37,573 nt of DNA, from contig JBOIBD010000002.1 in NCBI GenBank assembly GCA_050739415.1, positions 1 to 37,573 of the forward strand. The letters run 5' to 3'. The position numbers and the translations under genes are program-made. This DNA comes from Gammaproteobacteria bacterium. Its GTDB lineage: Bacteria; Pseudomonadota; Gammaproteobacteria; Natronospirales; REEB76. Below are positions 20,796 through 36,294 of the stretch, one piece after another (within the stretch, counting starts at the first letter, position 1; each line of letters opens with the position of its first letter). The notes under the pieces were generated by a model, which saw only the letters and a list, made by a program, of their open reading frames with translations, was not told the DNA's origin and did not search any database.

Positions 20796-21746
20796 GTGAT
20801 CTTGGTTGATACGGCCCCACAGAAATTTACGGCTCCACGCATAGTCACACGGTTAAGCGGCCGTGATCAATCGGTTCTGTATCTTGCCGATGATCCGATT
20901 TTGGCCGGAGGAAAACGCGGGAGTTACCTTTTTGAGCGGCATCAGACTTCGCCAGGTAACTTGCCCCCGCATGTTTTTGAAGAGCATATGTTCATGCTGC
21001 CCATGAGTTCATCACCCGTACCGTTTCGCAGCCACCTCAACGGCCGGCAGGTAAATGGCCAGTTCGAACCCGGGCGATTCCGGTTCCTCGCGGCGGGTGA
21101 CAGCCTGTCAACCGCGTGGAATCAGTCAATGGAGAGCATTCTGATTGCAATTCACCCCGCTGTGCTGCACCGCACTTTGGGCGATGATCTGCAGTGTGTT
21201 TCGAACGAACTGACATCGAATATTTTGCCGCACGACGACCCCGTACTGGCCAACCTGATATTGGCATTGCAAGCGTACATCCAATCGGGCTGTCTGGCGG
21301 GCAGGCTGTTTGAGCAGTCTATTCTGACGGCGATTGGCGCGCATTTACTGTCCGCATACGGCGGCCGCCGGGGCCGGCGAAGCCAAGGCTACCGTGCGCC
21401 CCTGCTGCGCTGGAAGCTGACGCGCGTTGAAGAGTACGTGCGGCAAAACCTCGCTCGCAGCGATCTCAATCTTGGGGAAATCGCCGCGGCGGTGAATTTG
21501 AGCATGTGCCAGCTCAGCCGGACATTCCGGGCAACCACGGGGCAAAGGTTGTGGCAGTTTGTCCTGGAGCGCCGGGCACGTGAAGCCATGCGCATGATGA
21601 GCGGCAAACATCCACCGCCGCTCGCACAGATTGCGCACGCCTGTGGCTTTGAGAGTTATTCGCAATTCATTGCGGCATTCCGAAAATTGTACGGGCTTTT
21701 GCCGAAGGACTATCTGCGTACTTTTGACGGACCGGATAGGCAATGA
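20796..21746 (+). CDS. AraC family transcriptional regulator
   Basis: The C-terminus has the dual-HTH AraC signature (LNLGEIAAAVNLSMCQLSRTFRATTG...LAQIAHACGFESYSQFIAAFRKLYGLLPKDY). It has a GTG start. It is divergent from the TPR regulator and directly upstream of the lipoprotein cluster. Confidence 0.9.
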   Translation: MILVDTAPQKFTAPRIVTRLSGRDQSVLYLADDPILAGGKRGSYLFERHQTSPGNLPPHVFEEHMFMLPMSSSPVPFRSHLNGRQVNGQFEPGRFRFLAAGDSLSTAWNQSMESILIAIHPAVLHRTLGDDLQCVSNELTSNILPHDDPVLANLILALQAYIQSGCLAGRLFEQSILTAIGAHLLSAYGGRRGRRSQGYRAPLLRWKLTRVEEYVRQNLARSDLNLGEIAAAVNLSMCQLSRTFRATTGQRLWQFVLERRAREAMRMMSGKHPPPLAQIAHACGFESYSQFIAAFRKLYGLLPKDYLRTFDGPDRQ

Positions 21747-21942
21747 TTGGCATCATGCGCGCAAAAATCCAAAGTCCACCGCAATAAATTGAAGTCCAGA
21801 CATCAATATGGGAACTATTATTTGATTCAAGCGCCGAGTGGATGCGAGCGAGAATACAACTGGGGCGCGTGAGGGCGGAGGGAAACCCCGGCGATGACCT
21901 CAAGCCGGGAGGTATCTGAATAAAACTTTGGGAGAAACAGCC

Positions 21943-23601
21943 ATGAAACTTCAGCGTTTGACGGTCCTTTTGCCGGGGATGTTGCTGGCGGTCGTATTGA
22001 CCGCCTGCGGCGGGGGAGGATCGAGTTCCCCATCTGGATCATCGTCCAGTAGCAGTTCCGGCGGCAGTTCCTCGGGTGGGAGTTCTTCGTCAGGTGGCAG
22101 CTCATCCAGCAGTTCCTCGGGCGGCAGCTCGTCAGGAGGAAGTTCGTCCAGCGGCGGGTCCTCAAGCTCCAGTTCGTCCGGCGGCAGTTCTTCAGGCGGC
22201 GGCTCCGGTTCGGACTCGCTGCTCAGCGGCCAGTATGCCTTCATCGTTAGCGGCTTTGACTCAGCGCTCGCGGGCAGTATCACGGTCAACGGCAGCGGAA
22301 CGATTACCGGCGGCACGGAGGACATCGCGACTCCGGCCAGCAACCCCAATCTGTCCGGTTCGGATCTGAGCATCACCAGCGGCACCTACACGGTCGGCTC
22401 GGATCACCGCGGCACGCTGAGCTACACCGATTCCAACGGCAACAAATTCACCTTCGCGTTTGCGCTCGGTGCCATCTCGGGCGGCGTGGCCGCGCAAGGC
22501 CAGATGATCGAGTTCGATTCCAATCCGCTCGAAATGACGGGCCAGCTCGCACTGCAGAATCCGGCCGCGTTTTCCGCGTCCGCGTTGAGCGGCACCTATG
22601 CCTTGGACTTGCCGGGCTGGGATGCTTCCAACCAGAACCCGCAAGTGATTATCGGCAGCTTCACCGCCGGTGCAGGCGCTATTACCAATGGACTACTTGA
22701 TATCAACGACGGTGGCTCGGTTAAGGCGGCGCAGTCTTTCACCGGCAGCCTTGGCAGCATTGGCTCGAATGGTCGCGGCGCAATGACCGTAAATGTCGGT
22801 ACCAATACCAATACAATCACACTCTACGTGGTTTCCGCCGGCGAATGGTTCCTGATCAGCGGGACCTCGGCAAGCGAGAATTTCGCAACTGTCGGTGAAG
22901 TAATTCAGCAGAGCGGTGGGCCGTTCAGCGCGTCATCGCTGAACGGCAACACGATATTTGTGGATCAGTCGGAAACCGGCGTGCCTTCGCCGCATGCCAT
23001 GCTGGGCCTCCTGAACTTTGCCTCGAACGGCACGTTTTCGGGCTCGCTCGATATCAACGACGGCGGTACGGTCAGCTCGATGACGGCTACGGGCACGTTC
23101 AGTTTCACGAACGCGGCGAACGGCCGCTTTACCCTTACTCCCGGTGGTAACACCCTGGTTGGCTATATGGTGGCCCCGAACGAGGCCGTCATGACTGAGA
23201 CAACTGCTAACAAGCAGCCAGATTTCGGCACCCTCGAACCGCAGTCGGCCGGCCCGTTCAGCAACAGTTCCGTGGACAGCTCGTTCTATCTTGGCACGCT
23301 GCCGCTGATGTCCCCCGGCGCGCCGGGCAATCCGCCGCCGGCCTTGAACATCACCTCCGGCATTGCGGCTTTCAACGGCAGCGGTGGCCTTTCAGACACC
23401 GTAGATATCAATTCATCCGGTGTGACGACTTCCGGCTTTACCGGTTCGGATACCTACTCGGTGGCGGCGAATGGCCGCATGACGACCACGTCGGGTGACT
23501 TCGTGGGATACCTCGTTTCGCCGACAAAACTCTACTTGCTGAACATCGCGCAGGGTCAACCGGGCACACCGAATCCATCCATATTCATCGTTCAGCAGTA
23601 G
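21943..23601 (+). CDS. Lipoprotein LP1: lipobox, 70-aa Ser/Gly tether, then four copies of a Cys-free beta-rich domain of about 115-130 aa
   Basis: MKLQRLTVLLPGMLLAVVLTA|C lipobox, with GGGAGA upstream of the ATG at 21943. The internal repeats are marked by LSGQYAF / LSGTYAL / LNGNTIF starts and by GxxDINDGG(S/T)V...GRxT cores. Confidence 0.75.
   Translation: MKLQRLTVLLPGMLLAVVLTACGGGGSSSPSGSSSSSSSGGSSSGGSSSSGGSSSSSSSGGSSSGGSSSSGGSSSSSSSGGSSSGGGSGSDSLLSGQYAFIVSGFDSALAGSITVNGSGTITGGTEDIATPASNPNLSGSDLSITSGTYTVGSDHRGTLSYTDSNGNKFTFAFALGAISGGVAAQGQMIEFDSNPLEMTGQLALQNPAAFSASALSGTYALDLPGWDASNQNPQVIIGSFTAGAGAITNGLLDINDGGSVKAAQSFTGSLGSIGSNGRGAMTVNVGTNTNTITLYVVSAGEWFLISGTSASENFATVGEVIQQSGGPFSASSLNGNTIFVDQSETGVPSPHAMLGLLNFASNGTFSGSLDINDGGTVSSMTATGTFSFTNAANGRFTLTPGGNTLVGYMVAPNEAVMTETTANKQPDFGTLEPQSAGPFSNSSVDSSFYLGTLPLMSPGAPGNPPPALNITSGIAAFNGSGGLSDTVDINSSGVTTSGFTGSDTYSVAANGRMTTTSGDFVGYLVSPTKLYLLNIAQGQPGTPNPSIFIVQQ
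22009..22218 (+). repeat. In-frame Ser/Gly low-complexity tandem repeat (LP1 tether)
   Basis: GGGGSSSPSG is followed by an exact 20-aa period, SSSSSSSGGSSSGGSSSSGG, in about 2.7 copies (units at 22039, 22099 and 22159). The DNA copies differ at many synonymous positions, including AGY/TCN serine codon switches. Confidence 0.9.
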
Positions 23602-23756
23602 GCCGGCGATGGTGATGATCGAACACGGCCGGTAAGGAAGTCGGCCCTTCATGGGTGCAGCCACGGCTGCCGCCGGGTTTGCAGAAGCGTGAACAGAATC
23701 TGCTCAGGATTTTGAGAAGCGAACTTCATGGGGATTTATATAACGGGAGTGCTGTC

Positions 23757-25094
23757 ATGAAGATTCAAAGGCTTGGCGCATTGGGGACGGCATTATTGTT
23801 TGCGTTGGCACTGTCGGCATGCGGCGGCGGTGGCGGTTCCTCGGGTAGCCCGCCGACGGGTAGTTCCTCCAGCGGGGGCTCTTCGAGCGGCGGCTCATCC
23901 GGTGGCAGCTCTTCCGGAGGCGGTTCCTCAGCGGTCACTTTTAGCGTGTGGGTGTCAAACGGGGACAACAGCATTACCGAAGTTATGCCAGCGGCAATCG
24001 CTGCGCAGTCTTGTTCGGTATCAACATGCGTGACATTCACTGGAGGCGGCATGAATGGTACGTATGCCTTGACAGCGGATGCAAACGGCGATATCTGGAT
24101 CGTGAATGACCCCGATGCAAACCTAGAGATTGCATCCAGTGTTACCGAGATCACTGCATCGGCAGTCGCGGCAGGGGCTTGTGGCAATACCACCTGTCTT
24201 AACTTTGTTGGTGGAGGGATAAGTGAGCCCCAAGATATTACGGTAGACGCTAAAGGAAATGTCTGGGTCGCGAATTTTGGATGCCCAAACTTGGCGTCGA
24301 CCACTTCGGGTTGCAACAACAGTAATGGCGGACTAAATGGTGGAATAACCGAGATTGAGCCGGGCGCTACACAAAACTGCTCCTCTGGATGTGCCTACTT
24401 CACTCTCCAACAAGGCGGTAATGGTGTACCAGAGATAATGCCGGAAGGTGTTGCAGTGGACAAGGAGGGGAATATTTGGTTTTCAAGCGACGGATGTTTG
24501 TCCGTGCCCTTGTGCACGAATCCAGCAAGCGTTGTGGAAATCCCCACAGCCACTATTCAGGCAGGATCGTGTAACAACGCTCAAGCCTGCCCTGCGTATT
24601 CTGGGAACATGGACGGCGTCGGAGGTATTGGCGTTGATGCTTCTCAAAATGTATGGATCGCTGGCAATACGGTAACCGAGATTAAAAATGGAGCACCGAC
24701 AACTTGTACTTTTGGTTGTATTACCTATTCTGGCTTCGATTTGAATGGCACTGAAGCCGTTGCAACTGACGGAGTGGGAAATGTATGGGTCGCCAGTGTA
24801 AATGCCGAGTCACTGACGGAGATCACAACAGCCGCAGTTGCTGCTGGAAGTTGTGGAACCACTTCCTGCCCCATTTACTCAATTGGTGAAATTATAGATA
24901 ATCCGCGCCCGTTGGCCGTAGATCAAAATGGGGATATATGGGTTGGTGCTCAAGGGCCAAGCGTAATTCAAGAAATACAACCGGGCGCTGCGTCGAATTG
25001 TTCGTCTGGGTGCATCGTTATAAGTAATTATCCAAGCACGCCAGTTTCCATCGCTATTGCTAGAAATGCTGAAACTAATAGTGGACAACTGTGA
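23757..25094 (+). CDS. Lipoprotein LP2: lipobox, 36-aa Ser/Gly tether, then an NHL/Vgb-like repeat (beta-propeller-like) domain with 9 close Cys pairs
   Basis: MKIQRLGALGTALLFALALSA|C lipobox, with GGGAG 7 nt upstream of the ATG at 23757. There are 6 blade motifs D-x-x-G-(N/D)-(I/V)-W-(V/I/F) (ADANGDIWIVN, DAKGNVWVAN, DKEGNIWFSS, DASQNVWIAG, DGVGNVWVAS, DQNGDIWVGA). These alternate with (I/V)TEI...C-x(3-5)-C segments. Confidence 0.8.
   Translation: MKIQRLGALGTALLFALALSACGGGGGSSGSPPTGSSSSGGSSSGGSSGGSSSGGGSSAVTFSVWVSNGDNSITEVMPAAIAAQSCSVSTCVTFTGGGMNGTYALTADANGDIWIVNDPDANLEIASSVTEITASAVAAGACGNTTCLNFVGGGISEPQDITVDAKGNVWVANFGCPNLASTTSGCNNSNGGLNGGITEIEPGATQNCSSGCAYFTLQQGGNGVPEIMPEGVAVDKEGNIWFSSDGCLSVPLCTNPASVVEIPTATIQAGSCNNAQACPAYSGNMDGVGGIGVDASQNVWIAGNTVTEIKNGAPTTCTFGCITYSGFDLNGTEAVATDGVGNVWVASVNAESLTEITTAAVAAGSCGTTSCPIYSIGEIIDNPRPLAVDQNGDIWVGAQGPSVIQEIQPGAASNCSSGCIVISNYPSTPVSIAIARNAETNSGQL
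23823..23930 (+). repeat. In-frame Ser/Gly low-complexity repeat (LP2 tether)
   Basis: GGGGGSSGSPPTGSSSSGGSSSGGSSGGSSSGGGSS follows the lipobox Cys directly. Confidence 0.9.
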
Positions 25095-25234
25095 TTCTTC
25101 GCAAAATGGAATTAAGGTCATGCAGATAGTTTCCTGGCAAGATGGCAGTCAATGCCCAAATCAACCGCCACCATTTCTGAAAGTCGCGCGACACTTATCC
25201 ACAACATGTTCATGATATTGAGGTGCGAACGAAA

Positions 25235-27163
25235 ATGAATATGAAGCGCGTTAGATTTTTCGTTCTATTGGTCCCCCTGCTTTTCAGTGCCATCTCTGGT
25301 TGCGGCGGAGGCACCTCTGCATCAGGAAGCGGAGGCACCTCATCGTCTGGAGGCGGATCAGGAGGCGGTGGATCACCGCTCCAGTCCTACACAACGGCCG
25401 GGACGTATGAATTCACCGTTCCCTCCGGCACCACGTCCATAATTGTTCAAGCATGGGGTGGTGGGGGTGGAGGAGGACTCGGTTGTTATTACACGGATGG
25501 GTATGGGGGCGGGGGCGGGGGAGGGGGAGGAGGATATGCACAGATTCAACTCAGCGTCACACCAGGAGCTGCTTTTACTGTAAATGTAGGCGGTGGCGGC
25601 GGTGTTGGCACGGTATCACCTGCTGGTGAGTGCATCGGGGGTGGCACTTCGGGTGGCAATAGTCAAATTCAAACGCAAAATGGTACGGTTCTCGTTGAAG
25701 CAACTGGTGGCTCCGGTGGCCTAAATGAAGGTCGTGGCGGAACTGGTGGTAATGGTAACGGAGAAACTGGTTTCACAAGCATGACGGGATCGATCGGTAT
25801 GAACGGCACTGCTTTCACGAATACTTTTGATCAAGTCGGTGGCGCTGGTGGTGCAGGGGCTAACGGTGGTGCAGGAGGGGTGGGTGGTTCAGCAGCATCC
25901 AATGTCATTGGAGAGGCAGGTGTGTCTCCTGGTGGAGGCGGTGGCGGTGGCGCTGCCAATGAAGTCAATTTCCCGGCCGGGCCGGGTGCTCCGGGACAAG
26001 TGGTTATAACTACGGGGACAGGAGGCGGCAGCCCTTCGGGCGGAAGCTCATCCAGCGGCTCATCGGGGGGGGCTTCATCGTCCAGCGGTAGTTCGTCCGG
26101 GGGCAGCTCGTCAGGCGGCAGCTCTTCTGGAGGAAGCTCCTCGGGCGGTTCATCCTCCAGCAGCAGTTCCTCAGGTGGAAGCTCGTCCGGGGGTAGCTCC
26201 AGTGGAGGGGGTCCTCCACCTAACACTGGCAATGGAAACGTCTATTGGGCAGAGCAATTTACCGGGGTCATCTGCACAGCGGCAAAGAGCCAGCAGAACG
26301 GTACGTGCAACGTTATTGCTACTGGGCAGGTTGGCGCAACATCAATTGCTATAGATTCTACTAACGTTTTCTGGACAGATGCTCACTCAGTATGCTGGGC
26401 ACCGAAGACGCAAAAAAATGGTGGCTGCACTAATACCATAATGGCTAATGGCAGTCCCGTATCCTATCAGGCGCCAGCAGAAATCGCGATAAGTACCGAT
26501 GATGTCCATTTTACATTTGCAGATAGCGGAACAGGCAACGTTTATATTTGTTCGAATCCCGCCAACGGCGCTGTCACTTGCACATCGTATGGTTCCTTTA
26601 CGGACCCACGCAGCACGGTTGCGGATAGCAATTATGTCTATATAGACAATACGGGTGCTGGCAGTGTATTGAGTTGCCCGATATTGCCAGGAACGTGTAC
26701 GACACTGCAGACCAATCCATTAGCCTCTGGCGCGCCAACTGATGATGGCATGGCGCTTGACACCAGTTCTGTCTATTACGCTGTTTATATCAACGCCTCA
26801 CTAGGTAATATTTGCGAAGTGCTCAAGACAGGTTCGGGACAGTTGTGCTCGACCGCGATCGCGACATCTCAAGGCGGGCCGGTTCGTGTCGCCGTTGATT
26901 CTGCGAATATCTACTGGTCTGATGACGGGGACGGCCAAATCTGTACTGCCCCAAAGACACAAATTAACGGCGGCTGCACAACAGTCATCGCTAGTAACCA
27001 GTCCTCCCCTTACGGGATTGCGATCGATTCGAGTTATATTTATTGGATAAATTCAGGCAATGGGCAAGTGTGTTGGGCACTGAAGAACGTGAATCAAGGC
27101 TCGTGCAACATAATTGCTACAGACCCACCGGCCGGTTCAATAGCCATTGCTGTCGATCCATGA
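25235..27163 (+). CDS. Lipoprotein LP3: lipobox, 24-aa Ser/Gly tether, poly-Gly 'glycine-rich domain', 64-aa Ser/Gly linker, then 7 YWTD-like repeats each with a Cys pair
   Basis: MNMKRVRFFVLLVPLLFSAISG|C lipobox. The N-domain SYTTAGTYEFTVPSGTTSIIVQAWGGGGGGG...GGGGGGGGGGYAQIQLSVTPGAAFTVNVGGGGG resembles, from memory, the glycine-rich domain family seen in phage-fibre-like and viral proteins. The C-domain repeats (IAIDSTNVFWTD, VDSANIYWSD, IDSSYIYWIN) each carry C-x(6-10)-C. The start could be 25223 (GTG), 25235 or 25241. Confidence 0.8.
   Translation: MNMKRVRFFVLLVPLLFSAISGCGGGTSASGSGGTSSSGGGSGGGGSPLQSYTTAGTYEFTVPSGTTSIIVQAWGGGGGGGLGCYYTDGYGGGGGGGGGGYAQIQLSVTPGAAFTVNVGGGGGVGTVSPAGECIGGGTSGGNSQIQTQNGTVLVEATGGSGGLNEGRGGTGGNGNGETGFTSMTGSIGMNGTAFTNTFDQVGGAGGAGANGGAGGVGGSAASNVIGEAGVSPGGGGGGGAANEVNFPAGPGAPGQVVITTGTGGGSPSGGSSSSGSSGGASSSSGSSSGGSSSGGSSSGGSSSGGSSSSSSSSGGSSSGGSSSGGGPPPNTGNGNVYWAEQFTGVICTAAKSQQNGTCNVIATGQVGATSIAIDSTNVFWTDAHSVCWAPKTQKNGGCTNTIMANGSPVSYQAPAEIAISTDDVHFTFADSGTGNVYICSNPANGAVTCTSYGSFTDPRSTVADSNYVYIDNTGAGSVLSCPILPGTCTTLQTNPLASGAPTDDGMALDTSSVYYAVYINASLGNICEVLKTGSGQLCSTAIATSQGGPVRVAVDSANIYWSDDGDGQICTAPKTQINGGCTTVIASNQSSPYGIAIDSSYIYWINSGNGQVCWALKNVNQGSCNIIATDPPAGSIAIAVDP
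25505..25527 (+). other. Canonical G-quadruplex motif (G5-N1-G5-N1-G5-N1-G5) on the coding strand of LP3
   Basis: gggggcgggggcgggggaggggg encodes part of the Gly10 run. A second G-rich tract, ggggtggtgggggtggaggagga, lies at 25455-25477. Confidence 0.7.
26021..26212 (+). repeat. In-frame Ser/Gly low-complexity tandem repeat (LP3 inter-domain linker)
   Basis: GGGSPSGGSSSSGSSGGASSSSGSSSGGSSSGGSSSGGSSSGGSSSSSSSSGGSSSGGSSSGGG contains a run of the 5-aa period GGSSS. It is followed by PPP. Confidence 0.9.
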
Positions 27164-27195
27164 AGCGCAATTGATTTGACCTTGGAGACAAGGGT

Positions 27196-28476
27196 ATGCA
27201 GCCTCCCGTCAAATCCGCCGTGCACGGGGGCGTTGCGCTTGCCGGATTGGCCGCATTTCTGCTCGGTATCTGGATCCTCTGGTATTTCAGACCCTTCGCG
27301 AATTCGATACATGCCTGCCTGTTCCTGATTGCGCTGGTCGCGATTGCAGTCAGTACGGCGGATCTGTTCTGGCAAAAGGTGTACCGGCGGGCCAGCACCG
27401 GGCTGGATGGCTCCCGGCGGGAGTATTCGTTTAGCCGCACCGGCACCAAGCTGCTCGGCCTCCTCGGCAGCTTCGGGTTCATCAGTCTGTTGTACTGGCT
27501 GTTCCCCGAGTACCACGGCGGCTTCTACCGCCATTACTACGCGATGCTCGAAATCCTGCTGCCCGTATGGCTGCTGGCGGCGGTGCCGTACTTCTATTTT
27601 CTCGACAGTCGGATGGCATCGCCCCGCGACGGCTATTGGCAGCTCGGCCGGCTGCTGCTGTGCCGCTGGGCGGACGTGGATTACACGCTGCTGCGCCAGC
27701 ACCTGCTCGGCTGGCTCATCAAGGGCTTCTTTCTGCCGCTCATGTTTGTCTACATGAGCAATGATCTCGGGGGTATCGAGGCCTTCCGCTTCAGCGGCCT
27801 GGATTCCTTCAAGAGCTTCTACGACTTCGGCTACAGCTTCATTTTCTTCACGGATGTCACGCTGGCCACGATGGGCTACATCGTCACGCTGCGCCTCACC
27901 GACACGCACATCCGCTCTCCGGAACCCACGCTGCTCGGCTGGGCCGCGGCACTGGTGTGCTATGAACCGTTCTGGTCACTCATTGGCGGCCATTATCTCG
28001 CCTATGACACTGGCCGTCCCTGGGGCGTGTGGCTGTGGGGCCATCCGGTTGTGTACGTGCTGTGGGGCTCAGCGATCCTGCTGCTGCTCGCGTGCTATGT
28101 CTCGGCCACCATTACCTTCGGCTGCCGCTTCTCTAACATTACCCATCGCGGCATCCTCACCAACGGGCCGTATCGTTTCACCAAGCACCCGGCCTATGTT
28201 GCAAAAAACCTGTCGTGGTGGCTGATCTCGGTGCCGTTCGTGGCGCAAGGCACCGTCGGGGAGACGCTGCGCAACTGCCTGCTGCTGTTGGGTGTCAACG
28301 GCATTTATTATCTGCGAGCCAAGACCGAAGAGTGGCATCTGTCGCGCGACCCGGTCTATGTCCAATACGCGCAGTGGATCAACGAACACGGCCTGTTCAG
28401 CCGCATGGCCCGGCTCAAGCCTCTGCGCTTCCTGGCCTACCGGGTGCCGGCAGAAGTCGCCTGCAAAATCCAGTAA
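27196..28476 (+). CDS. Polytopic membrane protein with a C-terminal ICMT/PEMT-family (Ste14-like) methyltransferase domain
   Basis: 426 aa with multiple hydrophobic segments. The C-terminal motif ITHRGILTNGPYRFTKHPAYVAKNLSWW...YYLRAKTEEWHL matches the (L/I)xTxGPYRxxRHPxY...EE signature of isoprenylcysteine carboxyl / phospholipid methyltransferase-like enzymes, with K in place of the usual R. The gene starts 32 nt after the LP3 stop, and GGAG lies upstream. Confidence 0.75.
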   Translation: MQPPVKSAVHGGVALAGLAAFLLGIWILWYFRPFANSIHACLFLIALVAIAVSTADLFWQKVYRRASTGLDGSRREYSFSRTGTKLLGLLGSFGFISLLYWLFPEYHGGFYRHYYAMLEILLPVWLLAAVPYFYFLDSRMASPRDGYWQLGRLLLCRWADVDYTLLRQHLLGWLIKGFFLPLMFVYMSNDLGGIEAFRFSGLDSFKSFYDFGYSFIFFTDVTLATMGYIVTLRLTDTHIRSPEPTLLGWAAALVCYEPFWSLIGGHYLAYDTGRPWGVWLWGHPVVYVLWGSAILLLLACYVSATITFGCRFSNITHRGILTNGPYRFTKHPAYVAKNLSWWLISVPFVAQGTVGETLRNCLLLLGVNGIYYLRAKTEEWHLSRDPVYVQYAQWINEHGLFSRMARLKPLRFLAYRVPAEVACKIQ

Positions 28477-28602
28477 CCAGTGCTGCATACAAACAATGAG
28501 GCACGAGATGTTGCGTTTCAGGTTCAGATGCACAGATGTGCGGTTCGATCATTAACCGGATAAAGCGCAATGGACAATTCCATACAGCGGGAGAAAGCTA
28601 TC

Positions 28603-29961
28603 ATGAAGAGTCTACTTGGTCATCTTGCGGTGCTTTCATTTATCGTACTGTTGGCGGCTTGCGGCGGCGGTGGCTCCGGCAGCTATGGCGATTCGGGCAG
28701 TAGCAGTTCCGGCGGAAGTGGCTCAGGTGGTTCTAGCAGCGGCAATGGCAGCAGCAGTGGTGGCAGCAGCAGCGGCGGCGGGAATATCAATTTCAGCGTC
28801 TGGGTTTCCAACGGTAATAATAACAGCGTGACCGAGATTACCCCTGCCGCCATTTCCGCCGGCTCCTGCAGCACATCAACCTGCATCGTTTTCACGGGCG
28901 GTGGAATGAATGGGGCGGGTCCATTGACGGTGGATGTGCACGGGGATGTCTGGGTTGCCAATGAACCTGTTGGCGCTTCCTCGGGGTCTGCTCCTTACAG
29001 CGTAACAGAAATCACCGCCGAGGCGGTCGCGGCTGGAGCGTGTTCTTCGGCCAGCTGCCTGAATTATACGGGGGGCGGAATATTTGCGATTAAAGACATC
29101 ACCGCGGACGTGAACGGGAATATCTGGGTTGCGGATAGCTGCGCGCCGACAACCAACTTTGCTGCGGCACCATGTGGGCACGGTAACGGTGGGATTACTG
29201 AAATAAAGCCTGGCGCGGCCCAGGATTGCTCATCAGGGTGTATCTATTTCCTGATACCGCAGAATAGTAATAATGATGGAGTTCCACAACTTTTCCCTCA
29301 GGGCGTGACGACTGATGGGCAAGGCAACGTATGGTTTACCAATAATGGCTGTGTCGTCAGCAACTGCCCGGTGAATACAGGCAGTCTCGTGGAAATACCC
29401 TTGAGCAGCGTACAAGCTGGATCCTGTTCCGGCTGCGTCCTTTACTCAAATGGAAACATTGCCGATCCCAGAGAAGTGGCGGTAGATATGGTTGGCAATG
29501 CATGGGTGGCAAACAGTTGCGGACCCGCAAATTGTTTCGATTATTCTGGTGGTAGTGTGACGGAAATCGAAAAAGGAGCCTCACCGGACTGCTCATCAGG
29601 CTGCGTAGATTATACAGGCGGAGACGTGTCTCAACCTGAAACGGTTGCTGTGGATAACAGCGGAAATATATGGGTGTCCGATCCAGCGCTTCCGGGGCTG
29701 ACCGAGATTACATCAGCCGCGGCTACCGCGGGAACGTGCAGTGTTTCATCGTGCGTCAATTTTAATACAGGCGGTATTACCGTGGATACGAGAGCAATGG
29801 CAATTGATCCAAACGGGGATATCTGGCTCACGAGGTCAACTGATGGAACTGTTCTGGAAGTTGCGTCCGGCGCACCTGTGGATTGTTCATCCGGTTGTAT
29901 AAGGATATCCCTGCCACAATCGGTACAGCTAAACGCTGAAGATGTTGCAATCATGCCCTGA
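28603..29961 (+). CDS. Lipoprotein LP4: colinear paralogue of LP2 (lipobox, 40-aa Ser/Gly tether, NHL/Vgb-like repeats with 10 Cys pairs)
   Basis: MKSLLGHLAVLSFIVLLAA|C lipobox, with GGGAGA upstream of the ATG at 28603. NINFSVWVSNGNNNSVTEITPAAISAGSCSTSTCIVFTGGGMNG aligns with AVTFSVWVSNGDNSITEVMPAAIAAQSCSVSTCVTFTGGGMNG of LP2, and the similarity continues to the C-terminus. Confidence 0.8.
   Translation: MKSLLGHLAVLSFIVLLAACGGGGSGSYGDSGSSSSGGSGSGGSSSGNGSSSGGSSSGGGNINFSVWVSNGNNNSVTEITPAAISAGSCSTSTCIVFTGGGMNGAGPLTVDVHGDVWVANEPVGASSGSAPYSVTEITAEAVAAGACSSASCLNYTGGGIFAIKDITADVNGNIWVADSCAPTTNFAAAPCGHGNGGITEIKPGAAQDCSSGCIYFLIPQNSNNDGVPQLFPQGVTTDGQGNVWFTNNGCVVSNCPVNTGSLVEIPLSSVQAGSCSGCVLYSNGNIADPREVAVDMVGNAWVANSCGPANCFDYSGGSVTEIEKGASPDCSSGCVDYTGGDVSQPETVAVDNSGNIWVSDPALPGLTEITSAAATAGTCSVSSCVNFNTGGITVDTRAMAIDPNGDIWLTRSTDGTVLEVASGAPVDCSSGCIRISLPQSVQLNAEDVAIMP
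28663..28782 (+). repeat. In-frame Ser/Gly low-complexity repeat (LP4 tether)
   Basis: GGGGSGSYGDSGSSSSGGSGSGGSSSGNGSSSGGSSSGGG follows the lipobox Cys directly. Confidence 0.9.
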
Positions 29962-30148: not shown

Positions 30149-30223
30149 TGGTGGGCGGTACTGGGATCGAACCAGTGACCCCTGCCGTGTGAAAGCAGTG
30201 CTCTACCGCTGAGCTAACCGCCC
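30149..30223 (-). tRNA. tRNA-Val (anticodon CAC)
   Basis: The reverse complement GGGCGGTTAGCTCAGCGGTAGAGCACTGCTTTCACACGGCAGGGGTCACTGGTTCGATCCCAGTACCGCCCACCA folds as a full cloverleaf. It has a 7-bp acceptor stem (GGGCGGT/ACCGCCC), a D stem (GCTC/GAGC), an anticodon stem (CTGCT/GGCAG) with loop TTCACAC, a T arm (ACTGG-TTCGATC-CCAGT), and an encoded CCA. Confidence 0.95.
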
Positions 30224-32932: not shown

Positions 32933-33142
32933 TTAATCTTCCTCGTAGATTTCCTTGAGTTTGCGCTTCAGACGCCGCTCGTTTAGATGATCTTCCAGGG
33001 TGCGCCATGCTTGGGACGCATTCTGCGGTTTCACCGGTTTTGGATTCCGCTTTCTGCCGGGCGCGCCCGGTTCATACACCTGATCGTTACCGGCGTCGTC
33101 GCTGTTGCGGAGAAATTCTTCAATACCGGATGGTTTGGGCAT
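32933..33142 (-). CDS. Small charged hypothetical protein (69 aa from the ATG) immediately downstream of the RND pump gene
   Basis: MPKPSGIEEFLRNSDDAGND...AWRTLEDHLNERRLKRKLKEIYEED, with GAGAGA upstream of the ATG at 33142. The ORF is also open to a TTG at 33235 that overlaps the pump stop. From memory, the C-terminal ...LEDxLxERRLxRxLxxxxE(D/E) tail resembles the small 'PA3496-like' proteins. This is unverified. Confidence 0.45.
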   Translation of the reverse strand: MPKPSGIEEFLRNSDDAGNDQVYEPGAPGRKRNPKPVKPQNASQAWRTLEDHLNERRLKRKLKEIYEED

Positions 33143-33231
33143 GCTTGTGGTTCTCTCGGCCAACATCAAGGGGATAGGGCGCGCTTTATACCCCGATATC
33201 GCAATCTTGTAAATCCCGGACGGGGGGCCTA

Positions 33232-36200
33232 TCAAGGGCTTGGTGCGGAAATCGCTTGTGCCGGGTCCGGGTGGTGCTGCCGGGCAAAGAAGGTGTACAT
33301 GGTGGGAACCACGAACAGCGTGAACATGGTACCCAGGGTCATGCCGCAGGCGATCACCAGACCGATATCGAAACGGCTGACAGCGCCGGCGCCGGAGGCC
33401 AGCAGCAGCGGTACCACGCCCAAGACCATGGCGGCGGTGGTCATGAGGATGGGGCGCAAACGCACTGCGGCGGCGTGTTCGATGGCCTCACGCTTGGTGC
33501 AGCCGGTTTGGATCTGCCACTTGTTCGCAAAGTCCACCATCAGGATGCCGTGCTTGGTGATCAAGCCAATCAGTGTCAGCAGTCCCACCTGTGTATATAT
33601 ATTGATGGTGGCCGCGCCCAAAAAGATAGGAATGAGTGCACCGCAAAACGCCAGCGGTACGCTGAATAAAATCACCAGCGGATCGCGCCAACTTTCGAAC
33701 TGTGCCGCCAGTACCAGGAAAATCACGATAAGTGCAAAGAAAATCGCCAGCAGCAGTGTATTGCCTGATTGCACGAATTGGCGTGATTCGCCGGCATAGT
33801 TGATGAAATAGCCCTTGGGGAAAATTTGCTGCGCTTCATTCTTGAAGAAATCCAGTGCTTTCCCCAAGGAGACGCCCGGGATCGCCGAGATGGTGGCCGC
33901 ATTCAACTGCTGGAACTGGTTCAATTGATCAGGCTGAATGCTGTTGCTGAGGTGTGCCACGGTGGAGAGTGGGATCATGGAGCCATCGCCGGTGCGCACA
34001 TAATAGTTCATGAGTTCAGCGCCGTTGCGGCGGAACTGGTCGGCTACCTGCGGGATCACCTGGTAGCTGTAGCCCTGCAGGTTGAAGAAATTGAGGTAAC
34101 CGCCACCCAGGAACGTGCTCAGTGATGAGCCCAGATCCTGCATGCTGATGCCGAGCTGCTGGGCTTTGTTGCGGTCTATATCTATGCTGAGCTGTGGGTT
34201 GTCGAATTTAAGATCGCTATCCACGTAATAGAACATACCGCTCTTGCGGGCCGCATCCATGAGTTTTTCCTGTACGGCATAGATATCCGAGTAGGGTGCG
34301 GTGGAGCTCACCACGAATTGCACCGGTAAACCAGAAGAGCCGGGCAGTGAGGGGAAATTGACCGCAAATCCACGCAAGCCCGCGATTTGGGTAAGCTTCT
34401 GCTGCACCTCTTTGGTCACTGCGAACTGGCTGACAGAACGCTCGTTCCAGGGTTTTAGAATCAGGAATGCGATGAGACTGTTGGTGCCGCCGCCAAAGCC
34501 GCCGCCGTTGATGAGCGCATAAGCGTCGCGCTGCGGAATGCCTTTGAAGATGTCTTCGACTTGCTGGCCGAATTTTTCCATATAGGCATGGGTGGCGTCC
34601 AACGGGCCAGTGGTCTGGACGAAAACGAAACCCTGGTCTTCGGTCGGCGCGAGTTCGCTGGGTGACATGGCATAGAATGCCACAACGTTCAAAATGACTA
34701 CGATGGCCACAACGACTGTCACCGGTCGCCAGTTGAGGGCATTGTGGAGCCAATGCTGGTAGCGTTCCTTGAGTGTGTCGAATTGGTGATTGAGCCAGGT
34801 TTCAAGCCGGTTGGTTTTACCAGTAGGCGCCAGGAATTTCGAGCACATCATCGGTGAGAGGGTGAGCGCGATAATTCCGGAGAGGATCACCGCGGCCGCC
34901 AGGGTGAAGGCAAATTCCTGGAACAATGAACCGGTCAGGCCGCCGATGAAGCCGATGGGCGCGAATACCGCCGCAAGCGTGATGGTCATGGCGATAACAG
35001 GCGTGGCGATCTCACGTGCACCGATGAGCGCCGCCTGGAATGGAGTCTTGCCTAACTCAATGTGACGGTGCGTATTTTCCACCACTACGATGGCATCATC
35101 CACGACCAGGCCAATGGCCAGCACCATGGCGAGCAGCGTCAGCAAGTTGAGTGAGTACCCCAGGAGCAGCATGAAGAAACACACGCCGATGAGTGACAGC
35201 GGAATCGTGATCACCGGGATGATCACCGGCCGCATTGCACCCAGGAACAGGAAAATCACCACGATCACGATCAAGGCTGCTTCCACGATGGTCTTGATGA
35301 CTTCGTAGATTGAGGCACTGATGAATTGGGTGGCGTCATAGACTACTTTTGTGTGCATCGAGGGCGGCAACTGCGGCTCGATGTCCGCCAGCTGCTGGCG
35401 GATCAGCTTCACTGTCGTCAGCGGATTGGCGTCCGGCGTGGGGTTGATGGCCATGAACACGGATGGAATACCACTGAAATTCACTGACAGATCCCGTACC
35501 TGCGAGCCGAGTTCCACCTGGGCCACATCCTTGATGCGTACCAAGTTGCCGTTCTGGCTACGCAACACGATGTCTGCGAACCCCTTGGAATTTTGCAGAT
35601 CGGTGGTAGTGGCGATATTCATGGACACCAGGCTGCCGCGGGTGGCGCCTGGCGCCGATAGATAATTGTTCTGCAAAAGCGCATTGGCTACATCGCTGGC
35701 GGTGACGCCGTAGGCAGCCATCTTCTTAGGATCCAGCCAGATGCGCATGGCGTAAGGGAAACCGAAAACTTGCGCCGACGCGACACCATCCAAGGTCTGC
35801 ACCTTGGGTTGCACGACTCGCGTGATGTAATCAGTGATCTGGCCCAGCGACATCTGGTCCGAGTAGAAACTGATGAACATGATGGCGGTATTGCGCACGT
35901 CCGATGACTGAATCACCGGCGCCTGCGATTGCGGCGGCAACACGTTTTTCACCTGGTCCACTTTGGACATGATGTCAGTCAGCGCTTTGTGGATGTCGTA
36001 ATTGAGCTTGAGATACACCGTAATGGTGCTCATGCCCTGGGTGCTGGAGGAGGTAATGTAATCAATGCCCTCGGCGCCAGCTACAGACTGCTGGATCGGT
36101 TGGGTGATGAAGCCCTGGATTACATTGGCACTAGCGCCGGGGTAGGCGGTGGTGATGCTGACTTGGCCAGTCTCAATTTGTGGATACTGGCGCAGTTCCA

Positions 36201-36294
36201 TCTTGTTGACGGAATTCAGCCCCAACAGCAGGATGATCAGGCTGATGACCGTCGCCAGCACCGGGCGGCGGATGAAGATATCGGTAAAATTCAT
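33232..36294 (-). CDS. RND family multidrug/HAE1 efflux pump, inner-membrane permease subunit
   Basis: 1020 aa with the AcrB/MdtB-like N-terminus MNFTDIFIRRPVLATVISLIILLLGL...YPQIE and the conserved LAIGLVVDDAIVVVEN. It has the 12-TM layout with two large periplasmic loops. Confidence 0.95.
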   Translation of the reverse strand: MNFTDIFIRRPVLATVISLIILLLGLNSVNKMELRQYPQIETGQVSITTAYPGASANVIQGFITQPIQQSVAGAEGIDYITSSSTQGMSTITVYLKLNYDIHKALTDIMSKVDQVKNVLPPQSQAPVIQSSDVRNTAIMFISFYSDQMSLGQITDYITRVVQPKVQTLDGVASAQVFGFPYAMRIWLDPKKMAAYGVTASDVANALLQNNYLSAPGATRGSLVSMNIATTTDLQNSKGFADIVLRSQNGNLVRIKDVAQVELGSQVRDLSVNFSGIPSVFMAINPTPDANPLTTVKLIRQQLADIEPQLPPSMHTKVVYDATQFISASIYEVIKTIVEAALIVIVVIFLFLGAMRPVIIPVITIPLSLIGVCFFMLLLGYSLNLLTLLAMVLAIGLVVDDAIVVVENTHRHIELGKTPFQAALIGAREIATPVIAMTITLAAVFAPIGFIGGLTGSLFQEFAFTLAAAVILSGIIALTLSPMMCSKFLAPTGKTNRLETWLNHQFDTLKERYQHWLHNALNWRPVTVVVAIVVILNVVAFYAMSPSELAPTEDQGFVFVQTTGPLDATHAYMEKFGQQVEDIFKGIPQRDAYALINGGGFGGGTNSLIAFLILKPWNERSVSQFAVTKEVQQKLTQIAGLRGFAVNFPSLPGSSGLPVQFVVSSTAPYSDIYAVQEKLMDAARKSGMFYYVDSDLKFDNPQLSIDIDRNKAQQLGISMQDLGSSLSTFLGGGYLNFFNLQGYSYQVIPQVADQFRRNGAELMNYYVRTGDGSMIPLSTVAHLSNSIQPDQLNQFQQLNAATISAIPGVSLGKALDFFKNEAQQIFPKGYFINYAGESRQFVQSGNTLLLAIFFALIVIFLVLAAQFESWRDPLVILFSVPLAFCGALIPIFLGAATINIYTQVGLLTLIGLITKHGILMVDFANKWQIQTGCTKREAIEHAAAVRLRPILMTTAAMVLGVVPLLLASGAGAVSRFDIGLVIACGMTLGTMFTLFVVPTMYTFFARQHHPDPAQAISAPSP

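Follow-up and report, generated by a model that had tools for sequence, protein, structure and literature searches.

What is an enzyme of the isoprenylcysteine carboxyl methyltransferase (ICMT) superfamily doing in the middle of a row of lipoproteins that stand on long stalks of serine and glycine? The question is raised by a stretch of 37,573 nucleotides from a Gammaproteobacteria bacterium (contig JBOIBD010000002.1; the whole stretch is called the window hereafter). In it an AraC-family regulator gene is followed by the lipoprotein genes LP1, LP2 and LP3, the gene of an ICMT-like membrane enzyme and a fourth lipoprotein gene, LP4, next to a tRNA-Val gene. An earlier reading made from the letters alone (the sequence-only reading) had described this block as uncharacterised and directed to the cell envelope, which was supported here, and had suspected that the ICMT-like enzyme is linked to Ser/Gly-tethered proteins. 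The suspected link proved to be real and broader than proposed, and it recurs across the enzyme family.

Linkage of the enzyme gene to exported Ser/Gly-tract proteins

The neighbours of the enzyme gene were analysed across its family. The scan of species-representative genomes gave 80 loci with enzyme relatives at 42-63% identity, and the enzyme-family loci span Beta-, Gamma-, Alpha- and Deltaproteobacteria, Bdellovibrio-like bacteria, Verrucomicrobia, Acidobacteriota and Planctomycetes. A neighbour was counted as Ser/Gly-rich when any 25-residue window of its product held at least 80% Ser plus Gly; genes were called by a simple procedure and the background was taken from the same loci at |d|>2. 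Among the genomes (82 loci), Ser/Gly-rich products were encoded at position -1 in 15/81 cases and at position +1 in 4/80, compared with 2/575 in the background. The result was replicated in metagenomes, with 7/66 at -1 and 2/66 at +1 compared with 3/305. For position -1 the two sets combined gave an odds ratio of 31 (Fisher p=3e-15), p-values being inflated as the loci share ancestry and are not phylogenetically independent. The linkage statistics of the enzyme family to Ser/Gly-tract genes are solid.

The Ser/Gly-rich proteins encoded at -1 belong to mutually unrelated families with different export and anchoring routes, and a long exported Ser/Gly tract is the sole property common to them. 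They comprise giant ESPR/TPS-type exoproteins whose Ser/Gly portion exceeds 1000 residues (Ralstonia, Pelomonas), PEP-CTERM proteins whose poly-Ser tract precedes the anchor, type IV pilin-like proteins ending in poly-Ser, GH18 chitinases of Microbulbifer that have polyserine linkers, Bdellovibrio-like proteins, and lipoproteins with Ser/Gly tethers, for example in the window and in loci L001, L021 and L135. Their genes usually lie on the same strand as the enzyme gene and 0-110 nt upstream of it. The immediate upstream gene in the window is LP3, and the enzyme gene starts 32 nt after it. The giant exoproteins (L010:714-7889, L041:383-7861, L101:1512-7979 and L103:2171-7924) are 1900-2500 aa long, carry an ESPR signal and contain 800 to >1300 residues of nearly pure Ser/Gly; as measured in L010 and L041, their genes end 0-4 nt before the ICMT-like gene.

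Two further observations were made on these neighbours. The exoproteins of L010, L101 and L103 have a common C-terminal domain of about 60 residues (PLPAWL.F....F.A..VP.G.LP.QV), which is also present in L006, L017 and L099, and the end of the L041 protein differs. A gene for a DUF4157/eCIS_core protein is a third recurrent type of neighbour of the enzyme gene, seen in Pandoraea; in Pandoraea pneumonica (L004:7411-8004) the gene, whose 197-aa product has no Ser/Gly tract, shares 4 nt with the beginning of the ICMT-like gene.

Ser/Gly stalks and lipoprotein signals in the window

The N-termini of LP1-LP4 consist of a signal peptide, a lipobox, GGG and then a tract of at least 80% Ser plus Gly. 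The lipobox pattern [LVI][ASTVI][GAS]C occurs after the signal peptide at about residue 20 in all four, with the lipobox cysteine at Cys22 in LP1 (LTAC), Cys22 in LP2 (LSAC), Cys23 in LP3 (ISGC) and Cys20 in LP4 (LAAC), and with Gly at +2 in each. The design of lipobox, Gly and a Ser/Gly tether of 24-70 residues, as first read from the letters, was thereby confirmed. Five tracts of at least 80% Ser plus Gly, 28-76 residues long, were found in the window. All of them are in LP1-LP4, behind signal peptides, and they surround the enzyme gene; LP3 holds two, the N-terminal tether and an internal tract of 70 residues. No such tract was present in the other exported proteins of the window (M16 peptidase, BNR protein, PstS). 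The many Cys pairs in the lipoprotein heads likewise suggest an oxidising, exported location.

The tracts are encoded by degenerate 15-nt repeats. As these repeats are only 67-80% matched, the tracts appear to be old and degenerate, and a recent origin by slippage was rejected.

The description of the tether design as unusual held in part. A lipobox followed by a short G/S tether of 14-20 residues is routine in this lineage; the arrays with the enzyme (window and L001) have longer tethers of 24-117 residues, compared with 14-20 residues in the arrays without it, a contrast based on five short contigs.

The ICMT-like enzyme family

The enzyme of the window scored 23.1 bits against the Pfam family ICMT (PF04140), for which the cut-off is 24, and gave a weak match to PEMT. 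More than 2480 homologues were found at 55-63% identity, and among the matches listed a precomputed PF04140 match was present in nearly all of 120 homologues. With 28-29 bits on ICMT, P0261, P0249 and P0376 of the same family lie above the cut-off. Matches to DUF1295 also occur in the family, and some homologues are named 'steroid 5-alpha reductase family enzyme' in the source databases. Carriers of the family include Ralstonia, Pandoraea, Cupriavidus and Microbulbifer.

The alignment of 25 homologues revealed about 95 invariant positions, which include the motifs GPYR-x3-HPAY and R-x2-TE-x2-HL...Y-x2-Y. The residues G324, P325, Y326, R327, H331, P332, A333, Y334, R374, T377, E378, H381, L382, Y388 and Y391 are invariant in the 25 sequences. 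We take these motifs to be typical of ICMT/PEMT enzymes. CaaX-type substrates are not expected in this bacterium.

The AlphaFold2 (AF2) model of the enzyme shows about 10 long helices with a predicted local distance difference test (pLDDT) value of 76, the N-terminal half being confident. The helices are predicted to be ten transmembrane (TM) helices. In the topology predicted from the positive-inside rule and the analogy with ICMT, both termini lie on the cytoplasmic side, together with the conserved loops (residues 60-84, 137-162 and 232-245) and the cofactor motif. Foldseek with the full model against PDB returned nothing at E<=0.001, which is a weak test given the low-confidence catalytic region, and PDB sequence and profile searches with the enzyme were empty or spurious. 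As to the ICMT-like assignment of the sequence-only reading, homologues pass the cut-off, and the window protein itself stays just below it and gave no fold match in PDB.

The N-terminal 240 residues match 490 cluster representatives (50% identity). Because nearly all the full-length carriers are 415-470 aa long, this domain appears to be an obligate partner of the ICMT-like domain. Two fusion proteins were seen. In P0261 (848 aa) the enzyme is fused to a PMT_2-like GT-C, which could be a read-through artefact of overlapping genes, and P0354 (838 aa) continues from the enzyme through an extra TM helix into a C-terminal domain of beta-lactamase fold.

Glycosyltransferase neighbours

The commonest homologous neighbour of the enzyme gene encodes a membrane protein of 415-510 aa, in some versions 680-715 aa, which is probably a remote GT-C glycosyltransferase family. 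It was present in 24/82 genome loci and 10/80 metagenome loci, and its gene often overlaps the enzyme gene by 4 nt. A GT2 gene was present in 14/82 genome loci. Its best NCBIfam matches are PgfS (E=7e-71) and ArnC (E=5e-42), which suggests a synthase of the polyprenyl-phosphate-sugar type. In the metagenome locus L135 the GT-C, the enzyme and a Ser/Gly lipoprotein are encoded together. Over the bacteria covered, the enzyme gene thus has two preferred settings: immediately behind a gene whose exported product bears a long Ser/Gly tract, or beside, overlapping or fused with the GT-C gene accompanied by the GT2.

The longer GT-C versions (685-715 aa; L039:5816-7873 (-) and L052:5889-8033 (-)) carry a C-terminal class-I methyltransferase-like domain with Methyltransf_23/25 and weak DVU_1556-type matches. 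This domain would be a second methyl-transfer function nearby.

The lipoprotein block and its heads

The features of the block are summarized in Table 1. The AraC, LP1-LP4 and enzyme open reading frames (ORFs) are all on the forward strand. The gene order, coordinates, strands and tRNA-Val placement given by the sequence-only reading were reproduced by the ORF map, an independent gene call of the source contig, which gave identical products for LP1, LP2, LP3, the enzyme and LP4 (552, 445, 642, 426 and 452 aa), and the tRNA scan. The length of the AraC protein is 250, 314 or 316 aa according to the start chosen, and gene callers give 250 or 314. Profile scans of the window proteins found no transporter and no second enzyme in the block, so the same reading held in stating that the methyltransferase is its only recognisable enzyme. 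Promoter-like and terminator-like sites in the window were not above the shuffled expectation and gave no operon signal.

Table 1. Features of the window; all coordinates are positions in the 37.5-kb window (37,573 nt).
Feature	Position	Strand	Remarks
TPR membrane regulator-like protein, 670 aa	18272..20284	-	TPR matches, partial CadC/HilA-like matches
AraC-family regulator	20796..21746	+	HTH_18 E=2e-18; start codon uncertain
LP1 lipoprotein, LTA/C, 552 aa	21943..23601	+	about 70-residue Ser/Gly tether at DNA 22003-22230; head at 22213-23598; four tandem 8-stranded beta-barrels
LP2 lipoprotein, LSA/C, 445 aa	23757..25094	+	about 37-residue Ser/Gly tether at 23823-23939; NHL/SBBP-type beta-propeller, nine closely spaced Cys pairs
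LP3 lipoprotein, ISG/C, 642 aa	25235..27163	+	24-residue tether at 25304-25387; Gly_rich_2 domain; internal 70-residue Ser/Gly linker at 26012-26221; YWTD-like propeller
ICMT-superfamily enzyme, 426 aa	27196..28476	+	about 10 helices (predicted 10-TM); unknown-fold N-domain of about 240 residues and C-terminal ICMT/PEMT-like cofactor domain
LP4 lipoprotein, LAA/C, 452 aa	28603..29961	+	about 40-residue Ser/Gly tether at 28660-28791; NHL/SBBP propeller; LP2 paralogue
tRNA-Val(CAC)	30149..30223	-	tRNA scan; 3' end towards LP4; array boundary, then hrpB
Promoter-like site near tRNA-Val	30267-30239	-	
270-aa ORF	32987-33799	+	no family match; overlaps the AcrB-type pump gene; probably no real gene
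AcrB-type pump gene	33232-36294	-	

The heads of the lipoproteins were analysed by profile search and modelling. LP2 and LP4 are 47% identical, in accordance with the view of LP4 as a colinear paralogue of LP2, and both match NHL/SBBP/Reg_prop propeller repeats with 9-10 closely spaced Cys pairs, mostly C-x2-5-C, one per repeat. They have few close homologues. The profile search placed the Gly_rich_2 domain in the N-terminal half of LP3, and its C-terminal half has YWTD-like blades with seven Cys pairs, mostly C-x10-C. Three of the four heads had been read as Cys-pair propellers, and this agrees with LP2, LP4 and the C-terminal half of LP3.

LP1 is not a propeller, and its lipobox cysteine is its sole cysteine. 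Its AF2 model (pLDDT 91, predicted template modelling score 0.91) gave the four barrels of Table 1, a fold that weakly resembles two-barrel enzymes and surface lipoproteins of the TbpB/hemophilin type. The LP1 head has >600 uncharacterised homologues in metagenome-assembled genomes of Gammaproteobacteria and Acidobacteria, and neither LP1 nor these homologues have a Pfam or NCBIfam family for this domain. Most of these homologues are lipoproteins whose G/S tether is short, and the head is usually preceded by Big_2/He_PIG Ig domains. The heads of LP1-LP4, tandem beta-barrels or disulfide-stapled propellers carried on Ser/Gly stalks of unusual length, are probably binding domains. The reading of tethered binding heads is supported as the appearance of LP1-LP4.

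Relatives of the array

The closest relative of the array is L001, whose enzyme is 82% identical to that of the window. There the TPR regulator (56% identity) lies directly beside an LP1 homologue with no AraC gene between them, and then come a different lipoprotein, whose Ser/Gly tether has 117 residues, the enzyme and a lipoprotein with a Big_2 head. L092 has an AraC gene directly before an LP1 homologue and no enzyme. In L180-L182 genes of the LP3-like, FG-GAP and LP2-like kinds come after the TPR regulator, the LP3 homologue being first in the array of L180. In L177 and L179 an LP2/LP4 homologue is directly followed by hrpB and the RND pump that is also present in the window. The syntenic arrays of L177 and L180-L182 lack the enzyme, and its gene was not found in the LP1-homologue neighbourhoods or the LP2-homologue loci examined elsewhere.

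A conserved module of AraC, LP1-LP4 and the ICMT-like enzyme, as the sequence-only reading had proposed, was therefore not found: L001 lacks AraC and has other lipoproteins, L092 shares AraC and LP1 only, and L180-L182 lack the enzyme. LP1 and LP2 homologues elsewhere showed no linkage with the enzyme in the gene-neighbourhood comparison; it is the enzyme gene that is non-randomly linked to Ser/Gly-tract proteins broadly. Because the relatives keep the flanks and swap lipoproteins, AraC and enzyme, the region is read as a variable lipoprotein array at a fixed site. Judged by these gene orders, the block is a lineage-specific, variable array of outer-membrane-type lipoproteins with one conserved enzyme rather than a fixed operon-type system, and the chromosomal site between the TPR membrane regulator and tRNA-Val/hrpB is constant. 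The TPR regulator has a cytoplasmic N-domain, one TM helix and a periplasmic TPR region, and it flanks the array in L001 and L180-L182; it is a more consistent candidate array regulator than AraC.

A tRNA-borne genomic island was considered and rejected. The window has no integrase and no repeat of at least 11 nt of the tRNA-Val end, and the GC fraction is 0.50-0.61 in the block compared with 0.53-0.62 in the flanks, which is no shift in composition. In L178 (2247-5400) a phage-type integrase, an antitoxin gene and a transposase lie directly after the LP4 homologue, where the window, L177 and L179 have tRNA-Val/hrpB. Within the lineage the tRNA-Val/hrpB site seems to be a hot spot of integration, the window itself being without an island.

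Proposed role of the enzyme and other explanations

The observed gene anatomy and linkages allow a role to be proposed, in which topology, substrate, methyl transfer and the link to glycosylation in this genome are suppositions. The enzyme may tailor, probably by methylation, a lipid-linked donor from which Ser-rich stalks are decorated, with LP1-LP4 as local clients; this is the favoured reading, though a tentative one that is somewhat less than an even chance. The proposal is drawn from three points: the -1 neighbours share the Ser/Gly tract, the recurrent enzymes among the neighbours are the GT2/GT-C pair, and enzymes of the ICMT fold work from the cytoplasmic side on substrates embedded in lipid. 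The enzyme would act on a lipid-linked intermediate from the inner membrane's cytoplasmic face, and the most plausible reaction would be methylation, dependent on S-adenosylmethionine (SAM), of a polyprenyl-phosphate-linked sugar or a related lipid donor. The donor would then be flipped, and a GT-C encoded elsewhere in the genome would use it on Ser residues of the disordered stalks. LP3 above all, among LP1-LP4, would be such a client. The likely benefit would be that long stalks are shielded from proteolysis or that surface properties are tuned.

Several observations weigh against this proposal. The window contains no GT-C or GT2 gene, tblastn giving chance matches only (E>1). In the genome set the Ser/Gly-neighbour loci and the GT-C-neighbour loci are disjoint (0/82 overlap), and because of this the three-way link of enzyme, GT-C and Ser/Gly protein rests on one metagenome locus (L135) and one fusion protein (P0261). 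About 43% of loci have neither a Ser/Gly nor a GT-C neighbour. The GT-C assignment comes from matches of 7/14 members to PMT_2 (best E=7e-7) and of 1/14 to STT3, all below the Pfam cut-off, and PDB profile and sequence searches with this family gave no match. The enzyme family has no structural or sequence match to a solved ICMT, and the model of the enzyme is of low confidence at residues 239-243, 267-273 and 310-328 and in the catalytic loop. The shared ancestry of the loci and the small sample behind the tether-length contrast, five short contigs, have to be added. We know of no protein-glycosylation system with an ICMT-fold enzyme.

Other explanations were weighed on the same evidence. A bulk envelope lipid may be modified instead, either by lipid A phosphate methylation (LmtA-like, with an ArnT/ArnC-like GT-C/GT2 pair) or by PEMT-like head-group methylation, and the Ser/Gly proteins would then depend on the membrane indirectly. 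LmtA, which methylates the lipid A 1-phosphate using SAM (PMC4402001), is a precedent. The weak Pfam matches to both ICMT and PEMT, the ArnC match of the GT2 neighbour and the disjoint GT-C and Ser/Gly loci also fit. We regard it as unlikely, as it leaves unexplained both the long Ser/Gly tract as the sole trait common to unrelated -1 neighbours and the tight, operon-like spacing to the Ser/Gly genes. It could also be that the window holds no functional link at all, and that a conserved enzyme with an unrelated membrane role sits by chance in a recombination-prone array whose tethers are ordinary spacers. Array content does vary among relatives, the enzyme is missing from the syntenic arrays named above, short G/S tethers are common in the lineage and no promoter or terminator signal above chance delimits an operon. 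Chance is nevertheless decidedly unlikely, given the narrow gap from LP3 to the enzyme gene and an adjacency that is seen with ten or more unrelated protein families and in several phyla, at about 30 times the same-locus background and again in a second data set.

The nature of the reaction may also be questioned. If the enzyme were an NADPH-dependent reductase of the SRD5A/DUF1295/polyprenol-reductase type, it would saturate the polyprenol carrier of the GT2/GT-C pair and would not be a methyltransferase. The DUF1295 matches, the reductase names of some homologues and the use of polyprenyl-phosphate carriers by the GT2/GT-C neighbours agree with this. ICMT is, however, the best and most frequent Pfam match in the family, and the invariant R-x2-TE(E)-x-HL ... 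Y-x2-Y tail appears nearer to the ICMT/PEMT motif than to the reductase motif, which makes a reductase improbable. Direct methylation of the lipoproteins or their lipid anchor, an idea of the sequence-only reading, has also been proposed for the proteins BCAM0694/0695 of Burkholderia cenocepacia (PMC10224339). The enzyme adjoins lipoproteins in the window, L001, L021, L135 and B. cenocepacia (PMC10224339), and ICMT acts on a lipidated cysteine. In a bacterial lipoprotein the cysteine that carries the lipid is the N-terminal residue, with no free alpha-carboxyl, many of the Ser/Gly neighbours elsewhere are not lipoproteins, and the conserved loops and cofactor motif are predicted to be cytoplasmic while the mature substrates are outside the cytoplasm. 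Direct methylation is on these grounds very improbable. Donor tailoring is retained as the working proposal, and it can be compared with the systems already described.

Comparison with known systems

Linkers of the polyserine or Ser/Gly type are frequent among the adhesins, pilins, secreted enzymes and surface lipoproteins that environmental as well as pathogenic Proteobacteria produce, and to our knowledge there is no established account of how Gram-negative bacteria maintain such protease-prone stalks. In streptococci, GtrB (GT2) with PgtC2 (GT-C), or Pgf, O-glycosylate Ser/Thr-rich disordered regions of lipoproteins and membrane proteins, which protects them from proteolysis (PMC12041528). 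The likeness lies in the substrates, disordered Ser-rich tails or tethers belonging to lipoproteins and membrane proteins (PMC12041528), and in the division of labour, a GT2 making the polyprenyl-phosphate sugar and a GT-C transferring it outside the cytoplasm. The GT2 neighbour of the present family scores best on PgfS, and the window offers five extracytoplasmic Ser-rich tracts as candidate acceptors. The streptococcal system, in contrast, is Gram-positive and has no ICMT-fold component, whereas the window lacks GT2 and GT-C and its tracts are Ser/Gly and not Ser/Thr; stalk glycosylation here is hypothetical.

Surface enzymes with a lipobox and a polyserine linker have been described in Saccharophagus, Cellvibrio and Microbulbifer (PMC2386152). 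They share with LP1-LP4 the lipoprotein anchor, the long Ser-rich flexible linker and the globular head, and Microbulbifer chitinases with such linkers flank the enzyme gene. Unlike them, the window heads are not carbohydrate-active enzymes by profile scans, and the literature on the polyserine-linker enzymes describes no link to an ICMT-like enzyme. The ICMT-like gene bcam0694 of B. cenocepacia adjoins bcam0695, which encodes a collagen-like lipoprotein with 83 GTS repeats; this was an in-silico remark of the authors, who speculated on lipidation (PMC10224339). Both cases place an ICMT-like polytopic membrane protein beside a Gly/Ser/Thr-repeat lipoprotein, a likeness drawn from the published description and not from established orthology, and the window lipoproteins differ in having no collagen middle-region domain. 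The lipidation role proposed for BCAM0694 (PMC10224339) is chemically unlikely.

ICMT/Ste14, LmtA and PEMT resemble the window enzyme in being polytopic, with a C-terminal cofactor motif (GPYR..HP.Y, R..EE..L), and the Pfam matches to them are weak to moderate. The window enzyme differs from them in being twice as long, with a conserved N-domain of about 240 residues that has no known relative, and in lacking a sequence or fold match to solved ICMT structures. A literature search for the family yielded no characterised member, only the passing remark on BCAM0694 (PMC10224339), and no characterised system was found that joins an ICMT-fold enzyme with Ser-rich stalks or GT-C.

Significance

The extracytoplasmic modification of Ser-rich disordered regions is already known in kind, and the linkage of an ICMT-fold enzyme to it would be new. 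The wider view is that the family defines a widespread, undescribed Gram-negative envelope pathway for the Ser/Gly (polyserine) stalks and linkers of exported proteins, in which the methyltransferase tailors a donor and a new GT-C family transfers it; this extension is rather doubtful at present. If true, it would be a Gram-negative counterpart of the streptococcal glycosylation of disordered regions, with an extra and chemically new step. It would also give a function to one large bacterial group that is annotated 'isoprenylcysteine carboxyl methyltransferase family' and has no plausible prenylcysteine substrate. A conserved family of thousands of members, whose genes track Ser/Gly tracts and a GT-C/GT2 pair, offers a candidate, accessible to genetics, for a new pathway of protein modification or of lipid-carrier tailoring.

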